From positions 352,211 through 416,210 of the forward strand of contig JASNYD010000006.1 of assembly GCA_048500355.1 (NCBI GenBank): a stretch of 64,000 nucleotides of DNA. The letters run 5' to 3'. Shown here one piece after another: positions 7,532-49,868 of this stretch. Within the stretch, counting starts at the first letter, position 1, and each line of letters opens with the position of its first letter. The notes beneath the pieces were generated by a model, which worked only from the letters and a program-made list of their open reading frames with translations, was not told the origin of the DNA and searched no databases. This DNA comes from Kofleriaceae bacterium (GTDB lineage Bacteria; Myxococcota_A; Polyangia; Haliangiales; Haliangiaceae). Made by a program: the position numbers and the translations under genes.

Positions 7532-8988
<1,457 letters not shown>

Positions 8989-8992
<4 letters not shown>

Positions 8993-10209
8993 GCGCCGCC
9001 TCCGGTCCGCGCCCCCCGCGGGCGCGCCGCCACCGGCCGCGCGCCGTCGGCCTCGCCGGCGCCGTCGATCGCCGGTAGCCGCACCCGCGCCACCGTGCCC
9101 CGCCCCACCGCCGACTCGAAGGTCAGCTCGCCGCCGTGCTCCTCGACGATGCGCCGGCAGATGCCGACGCCCAGCCCCGAGCCGCGCTCGCCGCGGGTGG
9201 TGAAGAACGGCTCGCCCAGGCGCGCCAGGACCTCGGGCGGCATGCCGGCGCCGCGATCGGCGACGGTCAGGATCGCGGTGTCGGGCGCCGGCGCCGTCAC
9301 CGCCACCTCGATCTCCCCGCCGTCGGGGCTGGCCAGCGCGGCGTTGTGGACGAGGTTGATCACGACCTGCGTCAGCTTGTCGTGGTGCAGGCGGCACAGC
9401 GGGTGGGCGTCGAGGCGGCGCACCAGGCGCCGCCGCCGCACCTCGCGGTCGTAGCCGATGATCGCCAGCGCCTCGTCGACGACCGCCGCCAGATCGGCGG
9501 GCTCGCGCACCAGCGGCCGGCCGTGGTCGCCGCCCGAGAAGTCGCGGATGGCGTCGACCATGGCCAGCAGGCGCTTCTGGGCGTGGACGATCACGTCGGC
9601 CAGCTCGACCAGCTCGGGGTCGCTGGCCAGCCGGCTCTTGAGGGCCTCGGCGTAGCCGACCAGCGCGAGCTGCTGGCCGAGCTCGTGGGCGATGCCGCCG
9701 ACCACGCGGCCGACCGCGGCGAGCTGCTCCGCCACCACCAGCCGCTCGGTCGCGGTGGCCAGCTCGCTCGAGGTCGAGGTCAGCGCCCGCTCGCGGTGGT
9801 CGAGCTCGCGCTCGAGCCGCGCCATCCGCCGCTCCAGGCGCGCCCGCTCGAGCGCGGCCTCGAGCCGCGGCAGGAGCTCGGCCGCCACCACCGGGCGCGC
9901 GACGTGGTGCAGCCAGCCGAACGCGGCCAGCGCCCGCTCGGTGCCGTCGGCGTCGGCGGGCGCGGTCGTGACGATCACCGGCAGGTGCGGATCGACCACG
10001 CGCAGCGCCGCCGCCAGCTCGGCGCCCTCGGCGGCGCCGCCGAGCCGGAACCCGATCACCGCGGCGTCGAAGCGGCCGGCCGCCGCCAGCGCCCGCGCCG
10101 CCGCCGCCGAGGTCGCGACCTCGACCTCGTGCGGCACCTCCTCGCCCACCACCTCGGCCACCTGCCGCGCCGCCAGCGGGTCGTCGTCGGCCACCAGGAC
10201 ACGCACCAT
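8989..10209 (-). CDS. Hybrid sensor histidine kinase (REC-HisKA-HATPase)
   Basis: It has an N-terminal receiver (VLVADDD...), an H-box (IAHELGQQL), an N-box (NLVHNA) and a G-box (GSGLGVG). Confidence 0.85.
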
Positions 10210-16243: not shown

Positions 16244-17314
<1,071 letters not shown>

Positions 17315-17345
17315 GCGCGACCGCGGCGCGACGGGCGGGCTCGTA

Positions 17346-17360
17346 GTAACGTTCCGTTAC
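17346..17360. promoter_or_regulatory. Perfect dyad GTAACG-TTC-CGTTAC (candidate enhancer-binding site)
   Basis: The inverted repeat lies ~45 bp upstream of a -24/-12 element. The same 15-mer recurs at 20707. Confidence 0.45.
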
Positions 17361-17391
17361 GTGGCGAACGGGATCTCGAGGGCTTGCGGGC

Positions 17392-17406
17392 CGGCACGGC
17401 GCTTGA
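17392..17406 (+). promoter_or_regulatory. Candidate sigma-54 promoter (GGCACG-N4-TTGA)
   Basis: It matches the TGGCACG-N4-TTGCW consensus at 10/11 informative positions with correct GG-to-GC spacing. It ends 14 bp before the ATG at 17420. Confidence 0.45.
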
Positions 17407-17419
17407 TGGATGGGGCGCC

Positions 17420-18819
<1,400 letters not shown>

Positions 18820-18823
<4 letters not shown>

Positions 18824-20709
18824 CCGGCGTGATCCTCATCCTCATCGGCTCGCTCGGCGTCGCGTTCTCGATCCTCATCCTGCGCTCGGATCCGACCCGC
18901 CACGACAACCGCGCCTTCGCCACCCTGGGGCTGCTCGACGCCACCATGGCGCTGTTCCGCGGCACCACCGCGCTCCACGGCGCCGACATCGCCGACCGCA
19001 CCGTGATGTACCCGTGCGCGCTCATGGCCCCGTTCCTGGCCTGGGCCACCCTCGAGTTCGCGTGGTCGTTCCCGTTCAACCGGCCGCTGCCGTGGCGGTG
19101 GCGGGTGCCGATCGCGGTCGCCACCCTGGCCACGCTGGTGCTGCTCGCCAGCGGCCGCTCGATCGAGCGCTCCAACCTGGCCAACGCCCTGTTCTTCGTG
19201 CCGGCGACGATCCTCATGATCGTGTGGCAGATGCGCAACCTGCGCCGGGTCGAGGGCGACCGTCTGGGCGCGCGCCTGGTGGTGGCGGCGCTGATCGTCC
19301 GCTGGATCACCGCCAACATCGTCTACGGGCTGTACAGCCGCATCGACGGCGAGCTGTGGTCGCAGCTCCTCTGGATCGAGACCACCCTCGTCGTCCTGTT
19401 CGGCTTCGTCCTCATCGGCCTGGGCTGCGTCCGCTCCAACCTGTTCACGTTCCGCAGCGCCCTGGGCGGGATCGCGCTGGAGGCGGCGTTCTTCCTCGCC
19501 GGCCTCGGCCTCACCGCCGTCGCCATGGTCGGCGCACTCGAGCTGCGCGAGCGCTTCCCCGGCCTCGGCCTCGCGCTCCTGCTCCTGGCCGCGCTCATCC
19601 CGCTGGCGGTGTTCGCGGTCACCGAGCGCCTGCGCCCGCGGCTCGAGGCCGGCGTCGATCCGCGCAAGGCCCGCAGCCACGAGCTGCTCGACCACGCCAT
19701 GGCCACCGCCACCGGCGACGTCGGCGAGCTGACCGCCACCGTCGAGCGCACCCTGGCCGCGATCAGCGACGGCGGGATCGTGCGCTTCCGCCCCGCCGCC
19801 GCGGCCGGCGACGACGAGGCCGAGCCGACCGCGCCGGCGACGTCGCGGACCGCGGCCCGCCGCGACGGCGCGACCCTGACGGTGCCGGTCCGCACCGGCG
19901 CCACCGTCCACGGCGCGCTCGAGCTCCGCGGCGGCATCCTCGATCGCGAGACCACGCTGGCCAGCGAGCGCCTCGCCGACCGCCTGGCCGCGGCCTGCGA
20001 GCTGCGCCGCCTCGCCGGCGAGCTGGAGGCGGCGAGCCGGCTGGCCGCGCTCGGGGCCTTCGCCGCCGCGATCGCGCACGACATCCGTACCCCGCTGACC
20101 AGCGTGCAGATGAACGTCCAGATGCTGCGGCGCAAGGTGGCGCTGCCCGCCGACGACATGGAGCACTTCGACATCGCGCTCGAGGAGCTGCGCCGCCTCG
20201 ACGCCCACGTCCGCGAGCTGCTCGACTACGCCAAGCCGCTCGCGCTCCACCGCGAGACCGTCGACGCCCGCGAGGTGGCCGAGGGGGCCGCCCGCACCGT
20301 CGCCCCGCTCCTGGCCGGCCGCGGTCAGCGCTTGACCTGCCGCCACGATCCCGACGTGCCGCCGATCGCGGCCGACCCCCACCGGCTGCGCCAGGTGCTG
20401 TGCAACCTGCTCGACAACGCCGCCCACGCCTCGCCGGCCGACGCCGCGATCGAGCTGGTCACGCGCCGCGACGGCGACCGGGTGGCGATCGACGTCGTCG
20501 ATCACGGCGCCGGCGTCGCCGCCGCCGACCTGACGCGCATCTTCGAGCCCTTCTTCACCACCCGCCCCGACGGCACCGGGCTCGGCCTCGCGATCTGCCA
20601 GAAGGTGGTGCGGGGCCACGGCGGCGACCTCGTCGTGCGCTCGCGCCCCGGCGACGGCGCGACCTTCACCGTGCTCCTGCCCACCGCCGCGCTGTCGACG
20701 GCGGCGTAA
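18820..20709 (+). CDS. Membrane sensor histidine kinase (multi-TM sensor + HisKA + HATPase)
   Basis: The GTG start overlaps the response-regulator stop. It has about 7 N-terminal TM helices, an H-box (IAHDIRTPL), an N-box (NLLDNAAHA) and a G-box (GTGLGLAIC). Confidence 0.85.
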
Positions 20710-20741
20710 CGTTCCGTTACCCGGGGTAGCGAAACGTTACC
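20707..20741. promoter_or_regulatory. Two tandem dyads (GTAACGTTCCGTTAC and GTAGCGAAACGTTAC) 20 bp apart, candidate enhancer
   Basis: The first dyad is the same perfect 15-mer as at 17346. It sits 60-85 bp upstream of a -24/-12 element and overlaps the kinase stop codon. Confidence 0.45.
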
Positions 20742-20793
20742 GGCGGTGGTCGCGGCCACCGCCGCAGGACGCAGACTTGGCGCGCTGCGCGCC

Positions 20794-20809
20794 CGGCACG
20801 CCAGGTGCT
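20794..20809 (+). promoter_or_regulatory. Candidate sigma-54 promoter (GGCACG-N4-GTGC)
   Basis: The GG and GC dinucleotides are spaced by 12. The element ends 13 bp before the GTG at 20822. Confidence 0.4.
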
Positions 20810-20821
20810 CTACGGGAGGGC

Positions 20822-21943
20822 GTGTGGACCCTGGCCCGCAAGATCCTCCTGCACGATCGGATCAAGTTCACGGTCGCGGCGGCGGGGGTGTCGATCAGCG
20901 TGATGCTGGTGCTGGTCCAGATCGGCCTGTACCTGGGCTTCATGCAGAACGCGTCGAACCTCATCGACCACGCCACCGCCGACGTGTGGGTGACCGGGGA
21001 GGGCAGCGAGAACTTCGACTTCTCGGCGCCCATCGACGAGCGCGCCTTCTACCGCGTGGCGTCGGTCCCGGGCGTGGCCCACGCCGAGCGCATGCTGCTC
21101 GCCTTCGGCCAGTTCCGGCTCGCCGACGGCGGCACCCAGGGCGTACAGGTGGTGGGGCTCGAGCCCGGCGGCCGCCTGCTGCGGCCGTGGAACGTCGTCG
21201 CCGGCGATCCGGCGCACATCCACCAGGCCGGCGCCATCATGGTCGACGTCACCGAGGCGGCCAAGCTCAAGCTCGACCGCGTCGGCGAGCGCCGCGAGAT
21301 CTTCGGCGTCCGCGCCGAGGTCGTCGGCCTGACCCGCGGCATCCGCAGCTTCACGACCTCGCCCTTCGTGTGGACCGACCTCGACAGCGCGCGCGCCTAC
21401 GCCCTCTACCCGGCCGAGCGCTTCAACTACGTCCTGGTCGAGGCCGCGCCCGGCGTCGACCCCGGAGACCTGGCCCGCCGCCTCGACCAGCTCCCCGGCC
21501 TCGACGCCTACACCGGACCGACGATGTCGGCGCGGGCCCGCCACTACTGGTCGTCGCGCACCGGCGTCGGCGCCGGCTTCTTCACCACCGCCGCGCTCGG
21601 CGTGATCGTCGGCCTCGTCGTCGTCGGCCAGATCCTCTACAACGGCACGCTCGAGCACCTGAAGGAGTACGGCACGCTCAAGGCCATGGGCGCCCGCGAC
21701 GGCGCCATCCTGCGCGTGATCGTCTACCAGGCGCTGATCTCGGCCGCGGTCGGCCTGGTGCTGGGCGGCGGCCTGGCCCTGGCGGCGCGGGCGGCGATGG
21801 CCGGCGCCAACCTCAACGTGCTGCTCACCCGCGACCTGGTGATCGTCACCGCGATCCTGACCGCGGTGATGTGCTGCCTGGCCTCGCTCCTGTCCGTCAT
21901 CAAGGTCCTGCGCCTCGATCCGGCCTCGGTCTTCAAGGGCTGA
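20822..21943 (+). CDS. ABC transporter permease (FtsX/DevC-like)
   Basis: It has an N-terminal TM helix, a large periplasmic loop and 3 C-terminal TM helices typical of FtsX/MacB-type permeases. The GTG start was chosen downstream of the promoter-like element. The ORF finder extends to a TTG at 20777. Confidence 0.75.
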   Translation: MWTLARKILLHDRIKFTVAAAGVSISVMLVLVQIGLYLGFMQNASNLIDHATADVWVTGEGSENFDFSAPIDERAFYRVASVPGVAHAERMLLAFGQFRLADGGTQGVQVVGLEPGGRLLRPWNVVAGDPAHIHQAGAIMVDVTEAAKLKLDRVGERREIFGVRAEVVGLTRGIRSFTTSPFVWTDLDSARAYALYPAERFNYVLVEAAPGVDPGDLARRLDQLPGLDAYTGPTMSARARHYWSSRTGVGAGFFTTAALGVIVGLVVVGQILYNGTLEHLKEYGTLKAMGARDGAILRVIVYQALISAAVGLVLGGGLALAARAAMAGANLNVLLTRDLVIVTAILTAVMCCLASLLSVIKVLRLDPASVFKG

Positions 21944-22002: not shown

Positions 22003-22716
22003 ATGACCGAGCGCACCCCCATCGCCAGCCTGGCCGGCGTCTCCAAGATCTACGGCGCCGGCGAGACCCAGGTGAACGCCCTCGAGGGCGCCGACCTGTC
22101 GGTGTACCCCGGCGAGATCCTCCTCATCGAGGGGCCGTCGGGCTCGGGCAAGACCACGCTCATCTCGATCCTCGGCTTGCTCCTGCGTCCGACCTCGGGC
22201 GACGTGTTCGTGCGCGGCCAGCGGGTGACCGGCCTCGCCCAGCGCGAGCTGCCGTCGATCCGCGCCGGCACCTTCGGCTTCATCTTCCAGGGCTTCAACC
22301 TGTTCCCGGCGCTCACCGCCGAGGAGAACGTCGCGATCGCCATCAAGATGAAGGACCCGCGCGCGCGCGACGCCGACGCCGAGGCCCGACGGCTGCTCAC
22401 CGCGGTCGGGCTCGACAACCGCATGCACCACAAGCCCGGCGACCTGTCGGGCGGCCAGAAGCAGCGGGTCGCGATCGCCCGCGCCCTCGGCGGGAACCCG
22501 CCCATCATCATCGGCGACGAACCGACCGCCGCCCTCGACACCCGGACCGCGCTCGGCGTGATGGCGCTCCTGCGCGAGCTGGCCTCGATCCAGGGCCGCG
22601 CCGTCGTCGTCGTCACCCACGACCCCCGGCTCGAGCGCTTCGCCGACCGGGTGGCGCGCGTCGAGGACGGCCGGGTCACCGCCGTCGACACCATCGATCA
22701 CAGCCGCGCCGCGTGA
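22003..22716 (+). CDS. ABC transporter ATP-binding protein
   Basis: It has Walker A (GPSGSGKTT), the LSGGQKQRVAIARAL signature, Walker B (IIIGDEPTAALD) and an H-loop (VTHD). Confidence 0.9.
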   Translation: MTERTPIASLAGVSKIYGAGETQVNALEGADLSVYPGEILLIEGPSGSGKTTLISILGLLLRPTSGDVFVRGQRVTGLAQRELPSIRAGTFGFIFQGFNLFPALTAEENVAIAIKMKDPRARDADAEARRLLTAVGLDNRMHHKPGDLSGGQKQRVAIARALGGNPPIIIGDEPTAALDTRTALGVMALLRELASIQGRAVVVVTHDPRLERFADRVARVEDGRVTAVDTIDHSRAA

Positions 22717-23867
22717 GCGGCGCCTGCCCCCCGGAGGTCCCCGTGTCCACCCTCAGCGATCCCACCTCGTCCTCGCCCCCGCGCCGGTCGCGCGCCCTCG
22801 CCCGCCGCACCACCCTCGGCGCCGCGCTCCTGCTCGCCGCCGCCGCCGTCGCCGGCGTGGCGTGGTCGCGCTCCCCGGCGCCCGCCCAGCCCGCCGCCAC
22901 CGGCGGCGCGGCCGCCCCGTCGGCCCCGATCGCGGCCCTGGTCGCCCCGGGCCTGGTCGAGGCCCGCGGCAACCGCGTCGAGCTCGGCTTCGAGGCCAGC
23001 GGCCGCATCGCCGAGCTGCTGGTCGAGGAGGGCGACGCCATCGCCGCCGGCCAGCTCCTGGGCCGCCTCGACGACCGGATCGCGCGGGCCCGGGTGGCGC
23101 GCGCCGAGGCCGCGGTCGAGATGGCCGCCGCCCGCCTGCAGGCGACGCGGCGCGGAGCGCGGCGCGACGAGGTCCGCGCCGCGGCCGCCGAGGCCGACGC
23201 CGCGGCGGCCGCCGCCCGCGAGCGCGGCCTCGTCCGCGACCGCGCCGAGGCGCTGCTGGCGTCCCACCCCGACGCCATCCCCCTGGCCGAGGTCGACGCC
23301 GCCCGCGGCCAGGCCGACGCCAGCGCCGCCACCGCGCGCGCCGCCGGGGCCCGCGTCGCGCTCCTGCGCTCCGGCTCGCGCGCCGAGGTGATCGCCGAGG
23401 CCCGCGCCGCCCACGCCGCCGCCCTGGCCGAGCTCGAGGAGGCCCGCGCCCACCTCGCCCACCACGAGCTGCGCGCGCCGCGCGCCGGCGTCGCGCTCCG
23501 CCGCCTGCACGAGACCGGCGAGCACGTCACGACGATGCCGCCGACCACGGTCCTCGTCCTCGCCGACACCACCCACCTCGAGCTGCGGGTCGAGGTCGAC
23601 GAGGCCGACGTCGGCCGGGTCGCGGTCGGGCAGCCGGCGTGGGCCACGGCGCTGGCCTACGGTGACCGTCGCTTCACCGGTCGGGTCACCCGCGTCGTCG
23701 GCGAGCTCGGCCGCAAGAGCCCGCGCCTCGACGACCCGCGCGCCCGCATCGACACCCGCGTGCTCGAGGTGGTGGTCGCGCTCGACGACGCGCCGGCCTT
23801 GCCGCTCGGGCTGCGCATGGACGTCCACCTCGCGCCCACCGGCCCCCGCCCGGACGGCGCGCGATGA
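22713..23867 (+). CDS. HlyD-family membrane fusion/periplasmic adaptor protein
   Basis: It has a signal anchor, Ala-rich coiled-coil repeats and the beta-barrel/lipoyl segments typical of HlyD/MFP proteins. The GTG start overlaps the ATPase stop. Confidence 0.7.
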   Translation: MSGACPPEVPVSTLSDPTSSSPPRRSRALARRTTLGAALLLAAAAVAGVAWSRSPAPAQPAATGGAAAPSAPIAALVAPGLVEARGNRVELGFEASGRIAELLVEEGDAIAAGQLLGRLDDRIARARVARAEAAVEMAAARLQATRRGARRDEVRAAAAEADAAAAAARERGLVRDRAEALLASHPDAIPLAEVDAARGQADASAATARAAGARVALLRSGSRAEVIAEARAAHAAALAELEEARAHLAHHELRAPRAGVALRRLHETGEHVTTMPPTTVLVLADTTHLELRVEVDEADVGRVAVGQPAWATALAYGDRRFTGRVTRVVGELGRKSPRLDDPRARIDTRVLEVVVALDDAPALPLGLRMDVHLAPTGPRPDGAR

Positions 23868-25411
23868 CCGCCGGCCGCCGGCGCGGCGCGGCGCGGCGGT
23901 CGCGGCCGCGGTGGGTGACGCTCGGGCTCGCGCTCGTCGCCGCGACCGCGACCGCGACGGCGCCGGCGCTCGGCCCCGCCCTGGCCCAGGGCTCGCCCGA
24001 CGCCGGCGACCGCGCCGCCGACACCCGCGCCATCGGGCTGGCCGAGGCCCAGGCCCTCGCCCGCGCCCGCAACGACGCGCGCGCCGCCGAGGCCGCGGCC
24101 GCCGCGCGCGCCGCCGCGATGGTCGGCGCCGCCGACGGCGTCGACGACCTGATCGTCGAGGCCGCGGTCGAGGGCGTGCGCCGCACCGCCGAGCCCACCG
24201 CCGGGCCGTTCTTCCAGGAGACCGACCTCGACGCCCTCACCGTGCGCGCCGCGGTGTGGAAGCCGCTGCCGTGGGGCGGCCGCGTCGGCGTGCAGGTCCG
24301 CGACGGCGTCAGCCGGACCCAGGCGCTGGTCGCCGCGGGCGGGCCGCCCGCCGAGCTCGCGTACACGGTGCACGGCCCGCGCGCCGAGCTGGTCTGGCAG
24401 CAGCCGCTCCTGCGCGGCCGCGGTCGCGCCGCCCACGACGGCCCGCGCCGGGTGGCCCGGGCCGAGGCCGACGCCGCCCGCGCCAGCCTCGACCTCGCCG
24501 ACACCCGGCTCGCCCTCGACGTCGCCCGCGCCTACTGGGAGCTGGCCTACGCCGCGCGCGAGCTCGCGATCCGGCAGAGCGCGCTCGACCTCGCCGGCGA
24601 GCAGCTCGCGATCACCCGGGCCCGGGTCGGCGCCGGCCGCGGCGCCGAGCTCGAGGTGCTCGCGGTGGAGCAAGCGATCGCCGCGCGCGAGGCGGCGCTG
24701 GTCGGCGCGCGCCTCGAGCTGTCGGCGCGCGCCCTCGAGCTGCGGGTGCTGCTCGCCCTCGAGGACGGCGATCCGCGGCCGCTGGCCGCCACCGATCCGC
24801 TGGACGCCCCGACCTCGCCGCCGCCCGCGCCGGCGGCGGCGCTGGCCCGCGCCCTGGCCTTCTCGCCCGAGCTGCGCGCGATCGACCACCAGGCCCGCGC
24901 CGCCGGCGCCCAGCTCGACGCGGCGGCCCGCGCCCGCGGCCCCGGCCTCGACCTCGTCGTCCGTGGCGGCCCCGCCGGCAACGCCGCCGATCAGGCCGAG
25001 GCCTGGGGGCAGCTCGCGCGCGCCGACGGCTTCGAGGCTGCCGCCGCGCTGTCCTTCACCCTGCCGGTCGGCGATCGCGCCGGCCGCGGCCAGCACGAGG
25101 CGGCGCGCCTCGCCCGCCGCGAGCTGGCGCACCGGCGCGAGGCCCGACGCGGTCGCCTCACCGCCGAGGTGGCGCGCGCGGTCGACGCCGTGACCCTGTC
25201 GGAGCGCCGGATCGCCGCCGCGGCGCGGGCGGCCGAGCTGGCCGAGCGCAACGTCGCCCTCGAGCTCGATCGCTGGCGCACCGGGCTCGGCACCAACTTC
25301 GACGTGCTGACCCGCCAGGACCAGGCCGCCGCCGCCGCCGCCGCGCTGGCCCGCGCCCACGCCGACCGCCAGCTCGCGGTGGCGGCGCTCGTCGCCCTGA
25401 CCGGACCGTGA
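23864..25411 (+). CDS. TolC-family outer-membrane efflux protein
   Basis: It has a signal peptide and two long helix/coiled-coil repeats (LDLADTRLALDVARAYWEL...). It is 515 aa and its ATG overlaps the HlyD stop. Confidence 0.7.
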   Translation: MTAGRRRGAARRSRPRWVTLGLALVAATATATAPALGPALAQGSPDAGDRAADTRAIGLAEAQALARARNDARAAEAAAAARAAAMVGAADGVDDLIVEAAVEGVRRTAEPTAGPFFQETDLDALTVRAAVWKPLPWGGRVGVQVRDGVSRTQALVAAGGPPAELAYTVHGPRAELVWQQPLLRGRGRAAHDGPRRVARAEADAARASLDLADTRLALDVARAYWELAYAARELAIRQSALDLAGEQLAITRARVGAGRGAELEVLAVEQAIAAREAALVGARLELSARALELRVLLALEDGDPRPLAATDPLDAPTSPPPAPAAALARALAFSPELRAIDHQARAAGAQLDAAARARGPGLDLVVRGGPAGNAADQAEAWGQLARADGFEAAAALSFTLPVGDRAGRGQHEAARLARRELAHRREARRGRLTAEVARAVDAVTLSERRIAAAARAAELAERNVALELDRWRTGLGTNFDVLTRQDQAAAAAAALARAHADRQLAVAALVALTGP

Positions 25412-35530: not shown

Positions 35531-35645
35531 GCGCGCCCCGGCCAGCCCCGTGGCCGGTGTCGCCGCTGGCGACAGGCCGGCGCACGCGAGTCCGCGGACT
35601 TGCGCGCGCCCGCGTCCGGCCCGGGCGTTGCTGAGCAGGGACCCA

Positions 35646-36463
35646 TGCGCCGGTCCCGTCACCTGTCGCTCGTCGCCTGGCTCCTGGCCGCCCTCCTGGC
35701 CGGATGCGCCGTGGAGGGTGAGCGCCCCGACCCCGGCGAGGTCGCCGGCGCGGACCCGGCGCTCGACGGCCCCGATGGGCCAGGCGACGGCTCCGACGAC
35801 GGCACCGACGGCGCGAGCGGCGGCAAGGACGACAGCGCCCTCACCCTGCCGCTGCGCTTCCTGCCCGGCGAGCTCGTCGTGCCGAGCGCGGCGATCCAGC
35901 ACGAGGTGCGCAAGGTCTTCCGCAGCGCGGCCGCGCTCGAGGCGGCGCTCGGCATCCCCAACCCCGGCATCGACTTCTCGCGCGAGTGGGCCGTGTTCTA
36001 CACGCCGGGCATGGCGCGCCCCGATCTGCTGCCCGGCTTCTGGGCGCGCATCGACACCGTGCGGGTCTCGTCGACCGGGCTGACGATCATGGTCACGACC
36101 TCGCTCGAGCAGAACGGCGCCTGCGCGGCGCGCCGCTCGCGACCGTTCCTCCTCGTCGCGGTGCCGCGGCCCGAGACCCCGCCGCCCTACACCCGCTTCT
36201 ACCGCGCCGACCGCACGCGCGCGTGCCCGGGCGGCGTCACGTATCACGACGGCGTGCCGTTCACCCCCGCCGAGGAGGCCGCCGCGCTGCGCGCCGCCAA
36301 CCTCGCGACCCCGGGCGAGCTCCACGCCGCCGGCATCACCGGGGCCCAGGCCTCGATCGTCACCGGCGGCCGCACCTGGTCCCGCCTCGCCGCGGTCGCG
36401 GGCACCGCCGGCATCGGGAGCGCGACCATGACCAAGCTGCGCGCCCTGGGCGCGTCGTTCTAG
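35646..36463 (+). CDS. Lipoprotein with C-terminal helix-hairpin-helix (ComEA-like) DNA-binding motif
   Basis: It has a lipobox (LLAGCA). The C-terminus has ATPGELHAAGITGAQASIVTGG...AGIGSATMTKL (HhH pairs). Confidence 0.5.
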
Positions 36464-36629: not shown

Positions 36630-36645
36630 TGGCACCGGCGGTGCA
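36630..36645 (+). promoter_or_regulatory. Candidate sigma-54 promoter (TGGCACC-N4-GTGCA)
   Basis: It is a near-consensus -24/-12 element with correct spacing. It ends 14 bp before the ATG at 36659. Confidence 0.45.
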
Positions 36646-36658
36646 CAGGAACCCCGGC

Positions 36659-37768
36659 ATGAGGAAGCTCCCGTTCGTCCTGTTCGCCGCGCTCCTGGCC
36701 GTGGCCGCGACGCAGGCCGCCGCCACGCCCCCGCCGCCGTCGGGCCGCCTGACGCTGGTGGCCGGCGAGCGCGAGCCTGCCGGCGCTCGCGCCGCGGTGA
36801 CCGCCGACGAGCTCGGGCGACTCGAGCAGGCGGTGACGGCGCAGCCCCGCGATCGCGCCGCCCGCTTCGCGCTGGTGCGCGCGCTCCACCGCGCCGGCAA
36901 GCTCGACGAGGCGGTGGCGGCGGCGCGGGCGTGGCGGGCGGTCGACGCCTACAACCTCGTGGTCGTCCGCATGCTGGGCGACCTCTACAGCGAGCGCGGG
37001 CAGCGCGATCAGGCCCGCCGCGCCTACTCGGCGGTGGTCGAGCTCCTGCCCGGCGACGTCGGCGCCCAGCGCGCGCTGGCGAGCGCCCTCAAGCAGGCCG
37101 GCGATCTCGAGGCCGCCCACCAGCGCCTGAGCGCGGCGGCGGCGGCGGCGCCCGGCGATCGCCGCCTCGCCTTCGAGCTGGCCGACGTCGCCCAGCGCCT
37201 CGGCCGCACCGCCGAGGCGCGCGCCGGGCTCGAGGCCCTCGTCGCCGACACCGCCGTGCCCGAGTCGGTGCGGTACCCGGCCCGCCAGCGCCTGGCGCAG
37301 GTCTACCACGCGATCGCGCGCGACCAGCCGGGCGAGGCCGCCGCCATGCGCCGCGCCATCGCCGGCCTCGGCCTCGCCGGCGGCAGCGAGAACGACATCA
37401 AGATCTTCCTCACCTGGGACACCGATCGCAGCGACGTCGACCTGTGGGTGACCAACCCCAGCGGCGAGCGCGTGAGCTACCAGCGCAAGCAGGGCTCGTT
37501 CGGCGACGCCCTCTACGACGACGTCACCACCGGCTACGGCCCCGAGAGCTACACCGCGCCCCGGGCCCAGCCCGGCGCGTACGTGGTGCAGGTCAACTAC
37601 TACCGCGCCGGCAGCGGCAACCTCTCCGAGGCCCGCGGCGAGGTCGTGGTCGTGCTCGACGAGGGCAAGCCGACCGAGCAGCGTCACGTCCTGCCCTACC
37701 GCCTGTTCGACAAGGGCGACACCGTCACCGTCGCGCGCATCGACGTGCGCGCTGGAGGCTCGCGATGA
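36659..37768 (+). CDS. Secreted TPR-repeat protein with C-terminal DUF2135-like domain
   Basis: It has a signal peptide and Ala-rich TPR-like helices. The C-terminal ~110 aa (IFLTWDTDRSDVDLWVTNPSGE...YVVQVNYY) resemble the domain usually fused C-terminal to VIT+vWA proteins (family assigned from memory). Confidence 0.55.
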   Translation: MRKLPFVLFAALLAVAATQAAATPPPPSGRLTLVAGEREPAGARAAVTADELGRLEQAVTAQPRDRAARFALVRALHRAGKLDEAVAAARAWRAVDAYNLVVVRMLGDLYSERGQRDQARRAYSAVVELLPGDVGAQRALASALKQAGDLEAAHQRLSAAAAAAPGDRRLAFELADVAQRLGRTAEARAGLEALVADTAVPESVRYPARQRLAQVYHAIARDQPGEAAAMRRAIAGLGLAGGSENDIKIFLTWDTDRSDVDLWVTNPSGERVSYQRKQGSFGDALYDDVTTGYGPESYTAPRAQPGAYVVQVNYYRAGSGNLSEARGEVVVVLDEGKPTEQRHVLPYRLFDKGDTVTVARIDVRAGGSR

Positions 37769-48918: not shown

Positions 48919-49088
48919 GGATCGAGTGTAGGCAATTCCGGCGGGTGTAACCAGGCAGAAGCGCAAACCTCGGGTCACGCCCCGTGGCCGGCGGTTGACG
49001 CTCGCGCCGCCGGCGGCCCGGAGGCGTGGGGAAGGTCCACAACCGGTCCGGCCTTCGCCTGGCACCCACCTTGCGAGGTCCCCCGACC

Positions 49089-49868
49089 ATGCGGACCCGA
49101 ACCATCGTCGCCTCGCTCACCCTGTGTGCCCTCCCCCTCCTGGCCGGCGCCCGCGGCGACGGGTGCGCGGCGAGCTCGCGCTCGCCCGCCCCCGACGTCA
49201 CCGGCTGGTGGGACGTGACCTACGACGACGCCCTGAGCGTCGAGATCATCGTGGGCGGCTCGGTGTACACCGCCGAGACCGGCGCCCAGGGCGGCGCGAT
49301 CACGATCACCCACCAGGGGCGCCCGCTCACGTTCGACCTCGCCTGCGCGCGGCCCGAGGTCGTGTGCCCGAGCGAGGCCTGGCCGCGCGCGATCTTCGCC
49401 GAGCAGCGCGACGCCGGCTTCGAGCACCGCATGTACGTCACGCTGCCGGTGCAGACCTGCGCCGGCGCCCGGCGCGCCCCGGCGCCCGGCACCTGCGGGG
49501 CCGGCACCGCCAACCCCGAGTGCGACGACGTGTGCGACGGCGAGCTCGTCTCCCGCGACGAGGAGCGCTTCGGCGTGATCGGCGAGAGCGGACGGACGTT
49601 CCGCCTCTACCTCGGCGCCGGCGTCGCCACCAACGGCATCAACTGCGCGCTGCTCGGCTGGTCGGTCGCCGACGCCGAGCTCGACACCGTCGGCAGCGCC
49701 GCCGGCGGCGACTGGGAGGCGGTGGCGATGGACGCCGGCATGGTCACCGTCGGCTACTCCGGCGGCTGCCTGTGGGCCGGCGATCCGGACCTGGACGGCG
49801 AGCTCGAGGCCCTGATCCTGGGCGCCACCGTCAAGCTCACGACCGGCTTCACCGCCGATCGGCGCTAG
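49089..49868 (+). CDS. Hypothetical secreted Cys-rich protein
   Basis: It has a signal peptide and at least 10 Cys residues. Confidence 0.5.
   Translation: MRTRTIVASLTLCALPLLAGARGDGCAASSRSPAPDVTGWWDVTYDDALSVEIIVGGSVYTAETGAQGGAITITHQGRPLTFDLACARPEVVCPSEAWPRAIFAEQRDAGFEHRMYVTLPVQTCAGARRAPAPGTCGAGTANPECDDVCDGELVSRDEERFGVIGESGRTFRLYLGAGVATNGINCALLGWSVADAELDTVGSAAGGDWEAVAMDAGMVTVGYSGGCLWAGDPDLDGELEALILGATVKLTTGFTADRR

Follow-up and report, generated by a model that had tools for sequence, protein, structure and literature searches.

How is an efflux pump controlled when its genes directly follow those of a two-component system? We addressed this question for a 64-kb stretch of DNA from a Kofleriaceae bacterium (~75% G+C; hereafter the window) and considered the six plus-strand genes around a set of short palindromes. 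These genes encode, in order, a response regulator, a sensor histidine kinase, and the permease, ATPase, adaptor and outer-membrane channel of a pump. The interrupted palindrome GTAACG-N3-CGTTAC (hereafter the dyad) occurs once upstream of the regulator gene and twice upstream of the permease gene, each time ahead of an element of the −24/−12 type. We propose, with a probability of roughly 0.8, that the dyads are activating sites of the regulator encoded at 17420–18823, which would drive both the pump operon and its own operon through these elements. From sequence comparison we infer the dyad-binding protein, the dependence on sigma-54, the signal and where transcription starts.

The original prediction, made from the letters of the window, held that the 15-mer upstream of the regulator gene recurs identically upstream of the efflux operon, and that the centres of the two permease-side dyads lie 20 bp apart. 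The identical copy was confirmed by reading the sequence and by a pattern search, and the centres at 20713 and 20733 are indeed separated by 20 bp. The coordinates given for the regulator-side dyad (17346–17360) were correct, whereas those for the permease-side pair (20707–20721 and 20727–20741) were each too high by one; the true positions are listed in Table 1. At ≤1 mismatch, the pattern GTAACGNNNCGTTAC had three matches in the window against 0.01 expected, a number reached in 0 of 100 shuffles. No further copies were present in the window at ≤2 mismatches, and matches at three mismatches were at chance level there. The original prediction had also called for a search for more copies of the 15-mer; this was run on the window, the fetched loci and metagenome contigs, and found no extra copy in the window, where the regulon comprises only the regulator–kinase and pump operons. 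Relative to the predicted transcription starts, the pump promoter has tandem dyad-symmetric sites in the range of ~70–150 bp upstream (about −107 and −87), and the regulator promoter has one dyad at about −65.

The permease-side element cGGCACGCCAGGTGCt has the GG-N10-GC arrangement within the sigma-54 consensus yTGGCACGrnnnTTGCw and differs from TGGCAC-N5-TTGC at two positions. GGCACG-CCAG-GTGC at 20794–20809 had been described as ending 13 bp before GTG 20822. We found this in the sequence, with 13 nt between the C of the −12 GC and the GTG, and conservation supports it. A candidate for the cognate activator, an AAA+ protein with a GAFTGA loop, is encoded nearby.

Orthologous loci were fetched through their proteins and not through the motif, L001 by the kinase (43% identity) and L081–L089 by the regulators (66–85% identity). 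In the kinase-protein search, 79 of 80 loci carried unrelated kinases, with only the generic IFEPFFTT pattern matching widely, and these were reused as an 889-kb negative control. The closest relatives of the regulator are found in Kofleriaceae/Haliangiales assemblies. A 99%-identical copy is present in GCA_900696455.1. The gene order regulator–kinase–permease–ATPase–adaptor–channel is conserved, with synteny in L081–L083, L085, L088, L089 and L184. All ten loci with the permease have one dyad at ≤1 mismatch and a second dyad 19–25 bp away, and in all ten GGCAC(G)-N4-NTGCT follows 50–84 bp past the dyads (dyad centre to GG). The distance from the −12 element to the permease start is 13 nt in the window, 14 nt in eight loci and 15 nt in L089. 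An alignment of the ten permease upstream regions (A1) has invariant columns only in the dyads, GGCAC, TGCT and the coding start, and the intervening DNA has diverged; the columns of the proximal dyad are invariant or nearly so. No IHF-like site between the dyads and the permease promoter was indicated by conserved columns in A1. In the 99%-identical relative, every substitution in both upstream regions falls outside the elements.

The exact dyad had 16 matches in nine orthologous loci, all upstream of the regulator or permease gene, and was absent from the 79 unrelated loci, where a single match appeared at ≤1 mismatch. Dyads and promoter stay beside the permease gene despite inserts after the kinase gene, which comprise small open reading frames (L082), a Ser/Thr kinase gene (L084) and a hydrolase gene (L085). 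In L087 there is no pump gene downstream and no dyad after the kinase gene, and the dyad upstream of the regulator is kept. The kinase stop codon in the window (20707–20709) falls within the distal dyad, its TAA being that of the first GTAACG half-site; the same coincidence is found in L001 (7840–7842), L086 (9285–9287) and L082 (9189–9191). The L082 copy belongs to degenerate dyad remnants at the kinase stop, and an intact pair lies 440 bp downstream beside the permease gene; the remnants look like an insertion scar.

The distance between dyad and promoter varies in steps. At the permease promoter, the −24 GG is separated from the centre of the proximal dyad by distances that cluster at ~42, 52, 62, 72 and 83 bp; at the regulator promoter, the corresponding distances to the dyad centre cluster at ~40, 50 and 61 bp. 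Rayleigh tests with a period of 10.5, performed on sets not ascertained by the motif, gave p = 0.016 for ten permease loci and p = 0.0016 for eight regulator loci, values that are optimistic because the sequences are related. Since the distances cluster in steps of ~10 bp, insertions and deletions between dyad and promoter appear to come in whole helical turns. This stepping indicates a dependence on the face of the helix, as would be expected for an activator that needs to face the promoter. Between the two dyads themselves, the centre-to-centre spacing is 17–25 bp in 15 non-redundant pairs.

The regulator gene is preceded by a related arrangement. In 10 of 11 loci, a single dyad (≤2 mismatches) is followed by GGCAC-N5-(T/G)TG(A/T/C), and the GGCAC is invariant in all 11. 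As in A1, invariant columns in the alignment of regulator promoters (A2) are limited to the elements. The element in the window, cGGCACGGCGCTTGAt, retains GGCAC at −24 and TG at −12; because the −12 GC is absent, we describe it as −24/−12-like and do not class it as a canonical sigma-54 promoter. Among 32 non-redundant orthologues, the −12 tetramer of the regulator promoter is TTGA in 11, GTGG in 8, TTGT in 5, ATGG in 4, ATGA in 3 and TTGC in 1. The permease counterpart is NTGC in 54 of 54 non-redundant promoters. The non-GC −12 region of the regulator promoter is a conserved variant that perhaps permits basal, activator-independent expression. Additionally, a block GATCTCG-N5–7-CTTG lies between the regulator dyad and the −24 region (17365–17390) and is common only to the closer relatives L081, L083 and L088; it could be a site for a bending protein or just reflect recent common ancestry.

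The gene at 17420 had been predicted to encode an enhancer-binding regulator, and its product carries REC, sigma-54 AAA+ and HTH_8 domains, with a Sigma54_activat match of 2.3e-67 (Pfam) and GAFTGA at residue 215. With a histidine kinase encoded next to it, this is the composition of an NtrC-family response regulator. The protein stays below the NCBIfam cut-offs of AtoC (450 versus 714 bits), NtrC (419 versus 559) and ZraR (365 versus 760), and its closest solved structure is Aquifex NtrC4 (4l4u). Its helix-turn-helix, beginning WNKR(R/K)ACAxL(D/E), is almost invariant in 38 dyad-linked orthologues, which fits an unchanged recognition sequence. The conservation of elements upstream of both operons and their helical phasing likewise lend support, at the level of sequence, to the original proposal that the regulator activates the pump operon and autoregulates.

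Could the dyads serve another protein or another purpose? The bound protein was assigned by sequence association, and the dyads could be operators of a factor encoded elsewhere, or the adjacent regulator could act mainly as a repressor or roadblock. GTAACG half-sites are also used by the unrelated, TyrR-like GcsR (TGTAACG-N4-CGTTCCG, PMC4894688), myxobacterial enhancer-binding proteins such as PexR are able to repress too (PMC12754779), and in some metagenome loci the dyad pair would control a gene unlinked to the regulator. A factor encoded elsewhere is hard to reconcile with the regulator-upstream dyad, which persists without pump genes (L087) or with an insert between kinase and pump (L084), and no other conserved regulator gene was present near the locus in the orthologous neighbourhoods examined. 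As for repression, the dyads always lie upstream of the −24/−12 element at helically phased distances and do not overlap the promoter, a geometry of activation and not of occlusion. We therefore consider both possibilities unlikely. The paired dyads might instead act in RNA, as a hairpin that terminates or attenuates the regulator–kinase operon, with a palindromy that is structural and not protein-binding. Indeed, a 71-nt RNA across both dyads folds as one long hairpin (−38.3 kcal/mol, z = −2.9), whose start coincides with the stop codon of the kinase gene in the window and in L001 and L086. However, any two adjacent palindromes pair, no U-tract follows, and no terminator-like site was found in 17150–21000. 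The N3 spacers are complementary at a mean of only 1.4 of 3 positions (18 non-redundant pairs); the motif is single upstream of the regulator, even in L082 and L086, where the preceding gene runs in the reverse direction; and hundreds of bases separate the pair from the kinase gene in L082, L084 and L085, whereas the pair always lies beside the permease promoter. With no terminator-like site, spacers that are not consistently complementary and a pair that tracks the permease, we rejected the terminator or hairpin reading, which we regard as barely credible.

The promoter element itself might be a chance match or a half-palindromic regulator site, with the pump transcribed from a non-consensus sigma-70 promoter or by read-through from the kinase gene. 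Matches to GGCAC...TGC are common in DNA of 75% G+C, the L001 element reads as a perfect palindrome (GCACG-N3-CGTGC), and it is uncommon for a sigma-54 promoter to have its −12 element 13–14 nt from the start codon. Nevertheless, GGCAC(G) and TGCT are invariant in ten loci while the bases that would complete the palindrome vary, so that the element fits yTGGCACGrnnnTTGCw better than it fits a dyad-symmetric site. The same geometry recurs at dyad-free sites of better consensus before genes for signal-peptide proteins, and an E. coli-type scan, which is weak evidence for Myxococcota, found no sigma-70-like promoter in 17150–21000. This explanation thus appears highly improbable to us. The L001 palindrome had also prompted us to consider the −24/−12 element as a third palindromic regulator site, a candidate rejected on the variation of the palindrome-completing bases and the invariance of TGCT.

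Activation by the adjacent regulator through sigma-54, which we prefer, has its own difficulties, and the following observations weigh against it. Several loci (L083, L084, L085 and L089) have a degenerate distal dyad, with the CGTTAC arm intact and the left arm divergent. The regulator promoter lacks the −12 GC doublet (TTGA in the window) and has a single dyad, yet enhancer-binding proteins usually need at least two sites; in L001, the regulator gene has no upstream dyad, though a promoter-like element is present. TGGCACN5TTGC at ≤2 mismatches had 32 matches in the window against 44 expected and is not above chance, so that the significance of cGGCACGCCAGGTGCt derives from its conserved position across orthologous loci and not from the match itself. 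A search for an RpoN box in the 64-kb window gave no match, and the presence of rpoN in the source genome is assumed from what is generally known of Myxococcota. In E. coli, leaderless messenger RNAs (mRNAs) make poor use of GTG as a start codon. Finally, the metagenome set described below was chosen by the motif itself, and its counts are biased.

A mechanism can be proposed on this basis. The seven-transmembrane kinase would sense a signal at the membrane or envelope, possibly the pump substrate, and phosphorylate the regulator. Dimers of the regulator, bound to the dyads centred at about −107 and −87, would then form an AAA+ ring on a single helix face. Through a short DNA loop, this ring could reach sigma-54 RNA polymerase at cGGCACG-N4-GTGCt (20794–20809), and the ring, powered by ATP, would open the promoter. 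Transcription would begin within ~0–3 nt of GTG 20822 and yield an essentially leaderless permease–ATPase–adaptor–channel mRNA. At the regulator gene, the single dyad (about −65) together with the weaker, non-canonical element with TTGA at −12 would provide positive autoregulation of the regulator–kinase operon.

The predicted permease transcription start lies at ~20820, 2 nt before the start codon, when ~12 nt after the GC are assumed. Because the GC lies 13–15 nt from the start codon in all ten loci, a leader of only 0–3 nt is predicted if transcription starts at this distance. The original prediction placed the start codon at GTG 20822 and not at TTG 20777, which lies upstream of the promoter. 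Its choice holds: conservation begins exactly at the GTG, and an independent gene call on the 99%-identical relative predicts an identical product of 373 aa. In ten loci the conserved permease N-terminus, W-T/N-L-A-R-K, directly follows a GTG or ATG. Automatic calls push the permease 6–19 codons upstream, across its own promoter, in L081 (9386), L082 (9754) and L086 (9333). The abutment of promoter and start codon can serve in practice to correct such calls in the GC-rich genomes of this lineage. Between TGCT and the permease start codon A1 has no conserved columns; the internal ATPase gene does have GGAG.

This geometry is found beyond the dyads. In the window, every GGCAC-N6-TGC site, three in all, has a gap of 13–14 nt to a start codon; TGGCACCCACCTTGC and TGGCACCGGCGGTGC lie 14 nt, and the weaker CGGCCCGGGCGTTGC 13 nt, before theirs (Table 1). 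In 617 kb of related loci, 4 of 21 dyad-free sites lie at exactly 14 nt, with 0–2 at other offsets, and in the 889 kb of unrelated loci 0 of 36 sites lie at 13 or 14 nt. Whether Haliangiales/Kofleriaceae routinely set the sigma-54 −12 GC 13–14 nt before the start codon, and so produce leaderless mRNAs without a Shine-Dalgarno sequence and often with GTG, is in our judgement an even bet. If they do, there would be a direct coupling between activator-gated transcription and leaderless translation. If transcription-start mapping agrees, the conserved abutment of sigma-54 promoters and start codons would join two well-known mechanisms in a new way. In myxobacteria, sigma-A promoters have been proposed to give rise to leaderless mRNAs (PMC12754779). 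In the literature searched, which covered few subscription journals, we found no description of sigma-54-driven leaderless genes, of the dyad sequence, or of sigma-54 control of DevBCA/MacB pumps. Near the perfect consensus at 49060, GTCACGCCCCGTGGC (48974–48988) resembles the dyad with three mismatches and lies ~80 bp upstream; its frequency is within chance expectation, though it is placed as an activator site for another regulator would be. A second sigma-54 activator gene is present on the minus strand at 7532–9397 (GAFTGA near 8326) and may serve another sigma-54-like promoter in the window.

The regulon of this regulator could extend further in other genomes. A metagenome scan for the exact dyad, 31–61 nt, GGCAC-N6-TG, 14–17 nt and RTG returned 94 stretches, in which the downstream gene encodes the permease in 54–56 and the regulator in at least 22. 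In two stretches (L098, 154–1775, and L141), a TolC-like OEP gene directly follows the dyad, GGCACGCGACTTGG, 15 nt and ATG, which suggests another operon order or a separately controlled channel gene. Four stretches have instead a gene for a secreted Cys-rich protein of ~390–430 aa (L097, 2987–4242; L101, 2484–3868, minus strand; L102, 603–1879; L179, 817–2087). This family shares the motifs HHLLLY, THYLN, SHMHRRG and NEMCMF and shows a weak Cu2_monoox_C match. Its genes are preceded by a double dyad (with a degenerate upstream copy in L179), GGCACG-N4-NTGC, 14 nt and ATG. Neither the window nor the loci retrieved through proteins contain this family, and its genes show no linkage to the pump; this copper-monooxygenase-like secreted protein is likely a further regulon member in other genomes.

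Table 1 Dyads, promoter elements and genes of the window, with positions counted from its first nucleotide.
Feature	Position	Strand	Details
Single dyad GTAACG-TTC-CGTTAC, GTAACGTTCCGTTAC	17346–17360		Upstream of regulator gene; centre about −65 from predicted start 17418
Distal dyad GTAACG-TTC-CGTTAC, GTAACGTTCCGTTAC	20706–20720		Upstream of permease gene; centre about −107 from predicted start 20820
Proximal dyad GTAGCG-AAA-CGTTAC, GTAGCGAAACGTTAC	20726–20740		Centre about −87
−24/−12-like element cGGCACGGCGCTTGAt	17392–17407	+	13 nt before ATG 17420; GA instead of GC at −12
Sigma-54 type −24/−12 element cGGCACGCCAGGTGCt	20794–20809	+	GG 20795–6, GC 20807–8, 10 nt between
NtrC-family response regulator gene	17420–18823	+	Pfam: REC, sigma-54 AAA+, HTH_8
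Sensor histidine kinase gene	18820–20709	+	Pfam: HisKA and HATPase_c at C-terminal side of hydrophobic region
DevC/MacB-like permease gene, first in pump operon	20822–21943	+	Pfam: MacB_PCD and FtsX; GTG start
DevA-like ABC ATPase gene	22003–22716	+	ATG 22003 with GGAG 5′ of it; reading frame open from 21940
Membrane-fusion (HlyD/DevB-like) adaptor gene	22713–23867	+	Pfam/NCBIfam; start position approximate
Outer-membrane efflux protein (TolC/OEP family) gene	23864–25411	+	Pfam/NCBIfam
Weaker sigma-54-like site CGGCCCGGGCGTTGC	35617–35647		13 nt before lipoprotein start MRRSRH...
Sigma-54 consensus TGGCACCGGCGGTGC, no dyad	36630–36661		14 nt before ATG; signal peptide MRKLPFV..., TPR protein (gene at 36659)
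Perfect sigma-54 consensus TGGCACCCACCTTGC, no dyad	49060–49091		14 nt before ATG; signal peptide MRTRTIV... (gene at 49089)

The GTG start of the kinase gene shares bases with the regulator stop codon (GTGA). Residues 1–270 of the kinase contain about seven hydrophobic segments, which are followed by HisKA and HATPase_c. The pump operon combines a MacB_PCD/FtsX permease, an ABC ATPase, a membrane-fusion adaptor and an OEP channel, the composition of DevBCA and MacAB-TolC tripartite systems. None of the six proteins around the dyads reached an NCBIfam equivalog cut-off. As the cut-offs for DevC, DevA and DevB were missed, we describe the pump proteins as DevC-like and not as equivalogs.

How does this locus compare with known systems? 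NtrC at glnAp2 of enteric bacteria is the archetype of a two-component enhancer-binding protein acting from tandem dyads upstream of a sigma-54 promoter, and it recognizes TGCACC-N5-GGTGCA. The locus shares with it the REC-AAA+-HTH_8 regulator, dyads about two helical turns apart upstream of GG-N10-GC, and the proposed autoregulation of the regulator–kinase operon. In contrast to NtrC, the sites are GTAACG-N3-CGTTAC and lie nearer the promoter, the promoter abuts the start codon, and the target is an efflux pump and not nitrogen assimilation; as noted above, the regulator also misses the NtrC equivalog cut-off. The pump resembles DevBCA-HgdD of Anabaena and MacAB-TolC in its MacB_PCD/FtsX permease, ABC ATPase, adaptor and OEP channel, but differs in the order permease–ATPase–adaptor–channel and in a score far below the DevC cut-off (124 versus 290 bits). 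In BceRS-BceAB of Firmicutes, a two-component system with an intramembrane-sensing kinase lies beside, and induces, an FtsX-domain ABC transporter; its regulator is of the OmpR type and acts at sigma-70 promoters, and the transporter has neither adaptor nor outer membrane channel. Here, too, two-component genes adjoin an FtsX-domain ABC transporter, with an NtrC-type regulator and a tripartite pump instead. That the transporter might take part in sensing, by likeness to Bce, is pure conjecture.

The nearest described myxobacterial analogue is PexR of Myxococcus xanthus, which recognizes interrupted palindromes placed in tandem ahead of validated sigma-54 promoters, an arrangement conserved across the phylum (PMC12754779). 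PexR differs from the regulator here in motif, sensing and targets: it is not a response regulator and uses a GAF domain to sense peroxide, it recognizes CACCG-n6-CGGTG in three repeats, and it controls ahpC and katB. An overlap of its sites with a sigma-A promoter additionally leads to repression (PMC12754779). GcsR of Pseudomonas aeruginosa has tandem TGTAACG-N4-CGTTCCG sites upstream of a sigma-54 promoter and controls glycine cleavage genes (PMC4894688). It shares the tandem GTAACG/CGTT half-site with the dyads here, whereas it is TyrR-like, has another domain order and has arms 4 nt apart instead of 3; the resemblance of the half-sites is probably coincidental. For an uncharacterised two-component system widespread in soil Myxococcota, our analysis provides an operator motif (GTAACG-N3-CGTTAC), a promoter and a regulon that are ready to test, and such predictions are scarce for uncultured lineages that encode dozens of enhancer-binding proteins with unassigned targets. 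As read from these comparisons, the predicted architecture is that of a standard NtrC-type enhancer/sigma-54 switch, with a new recognition sequence and a new class of target.

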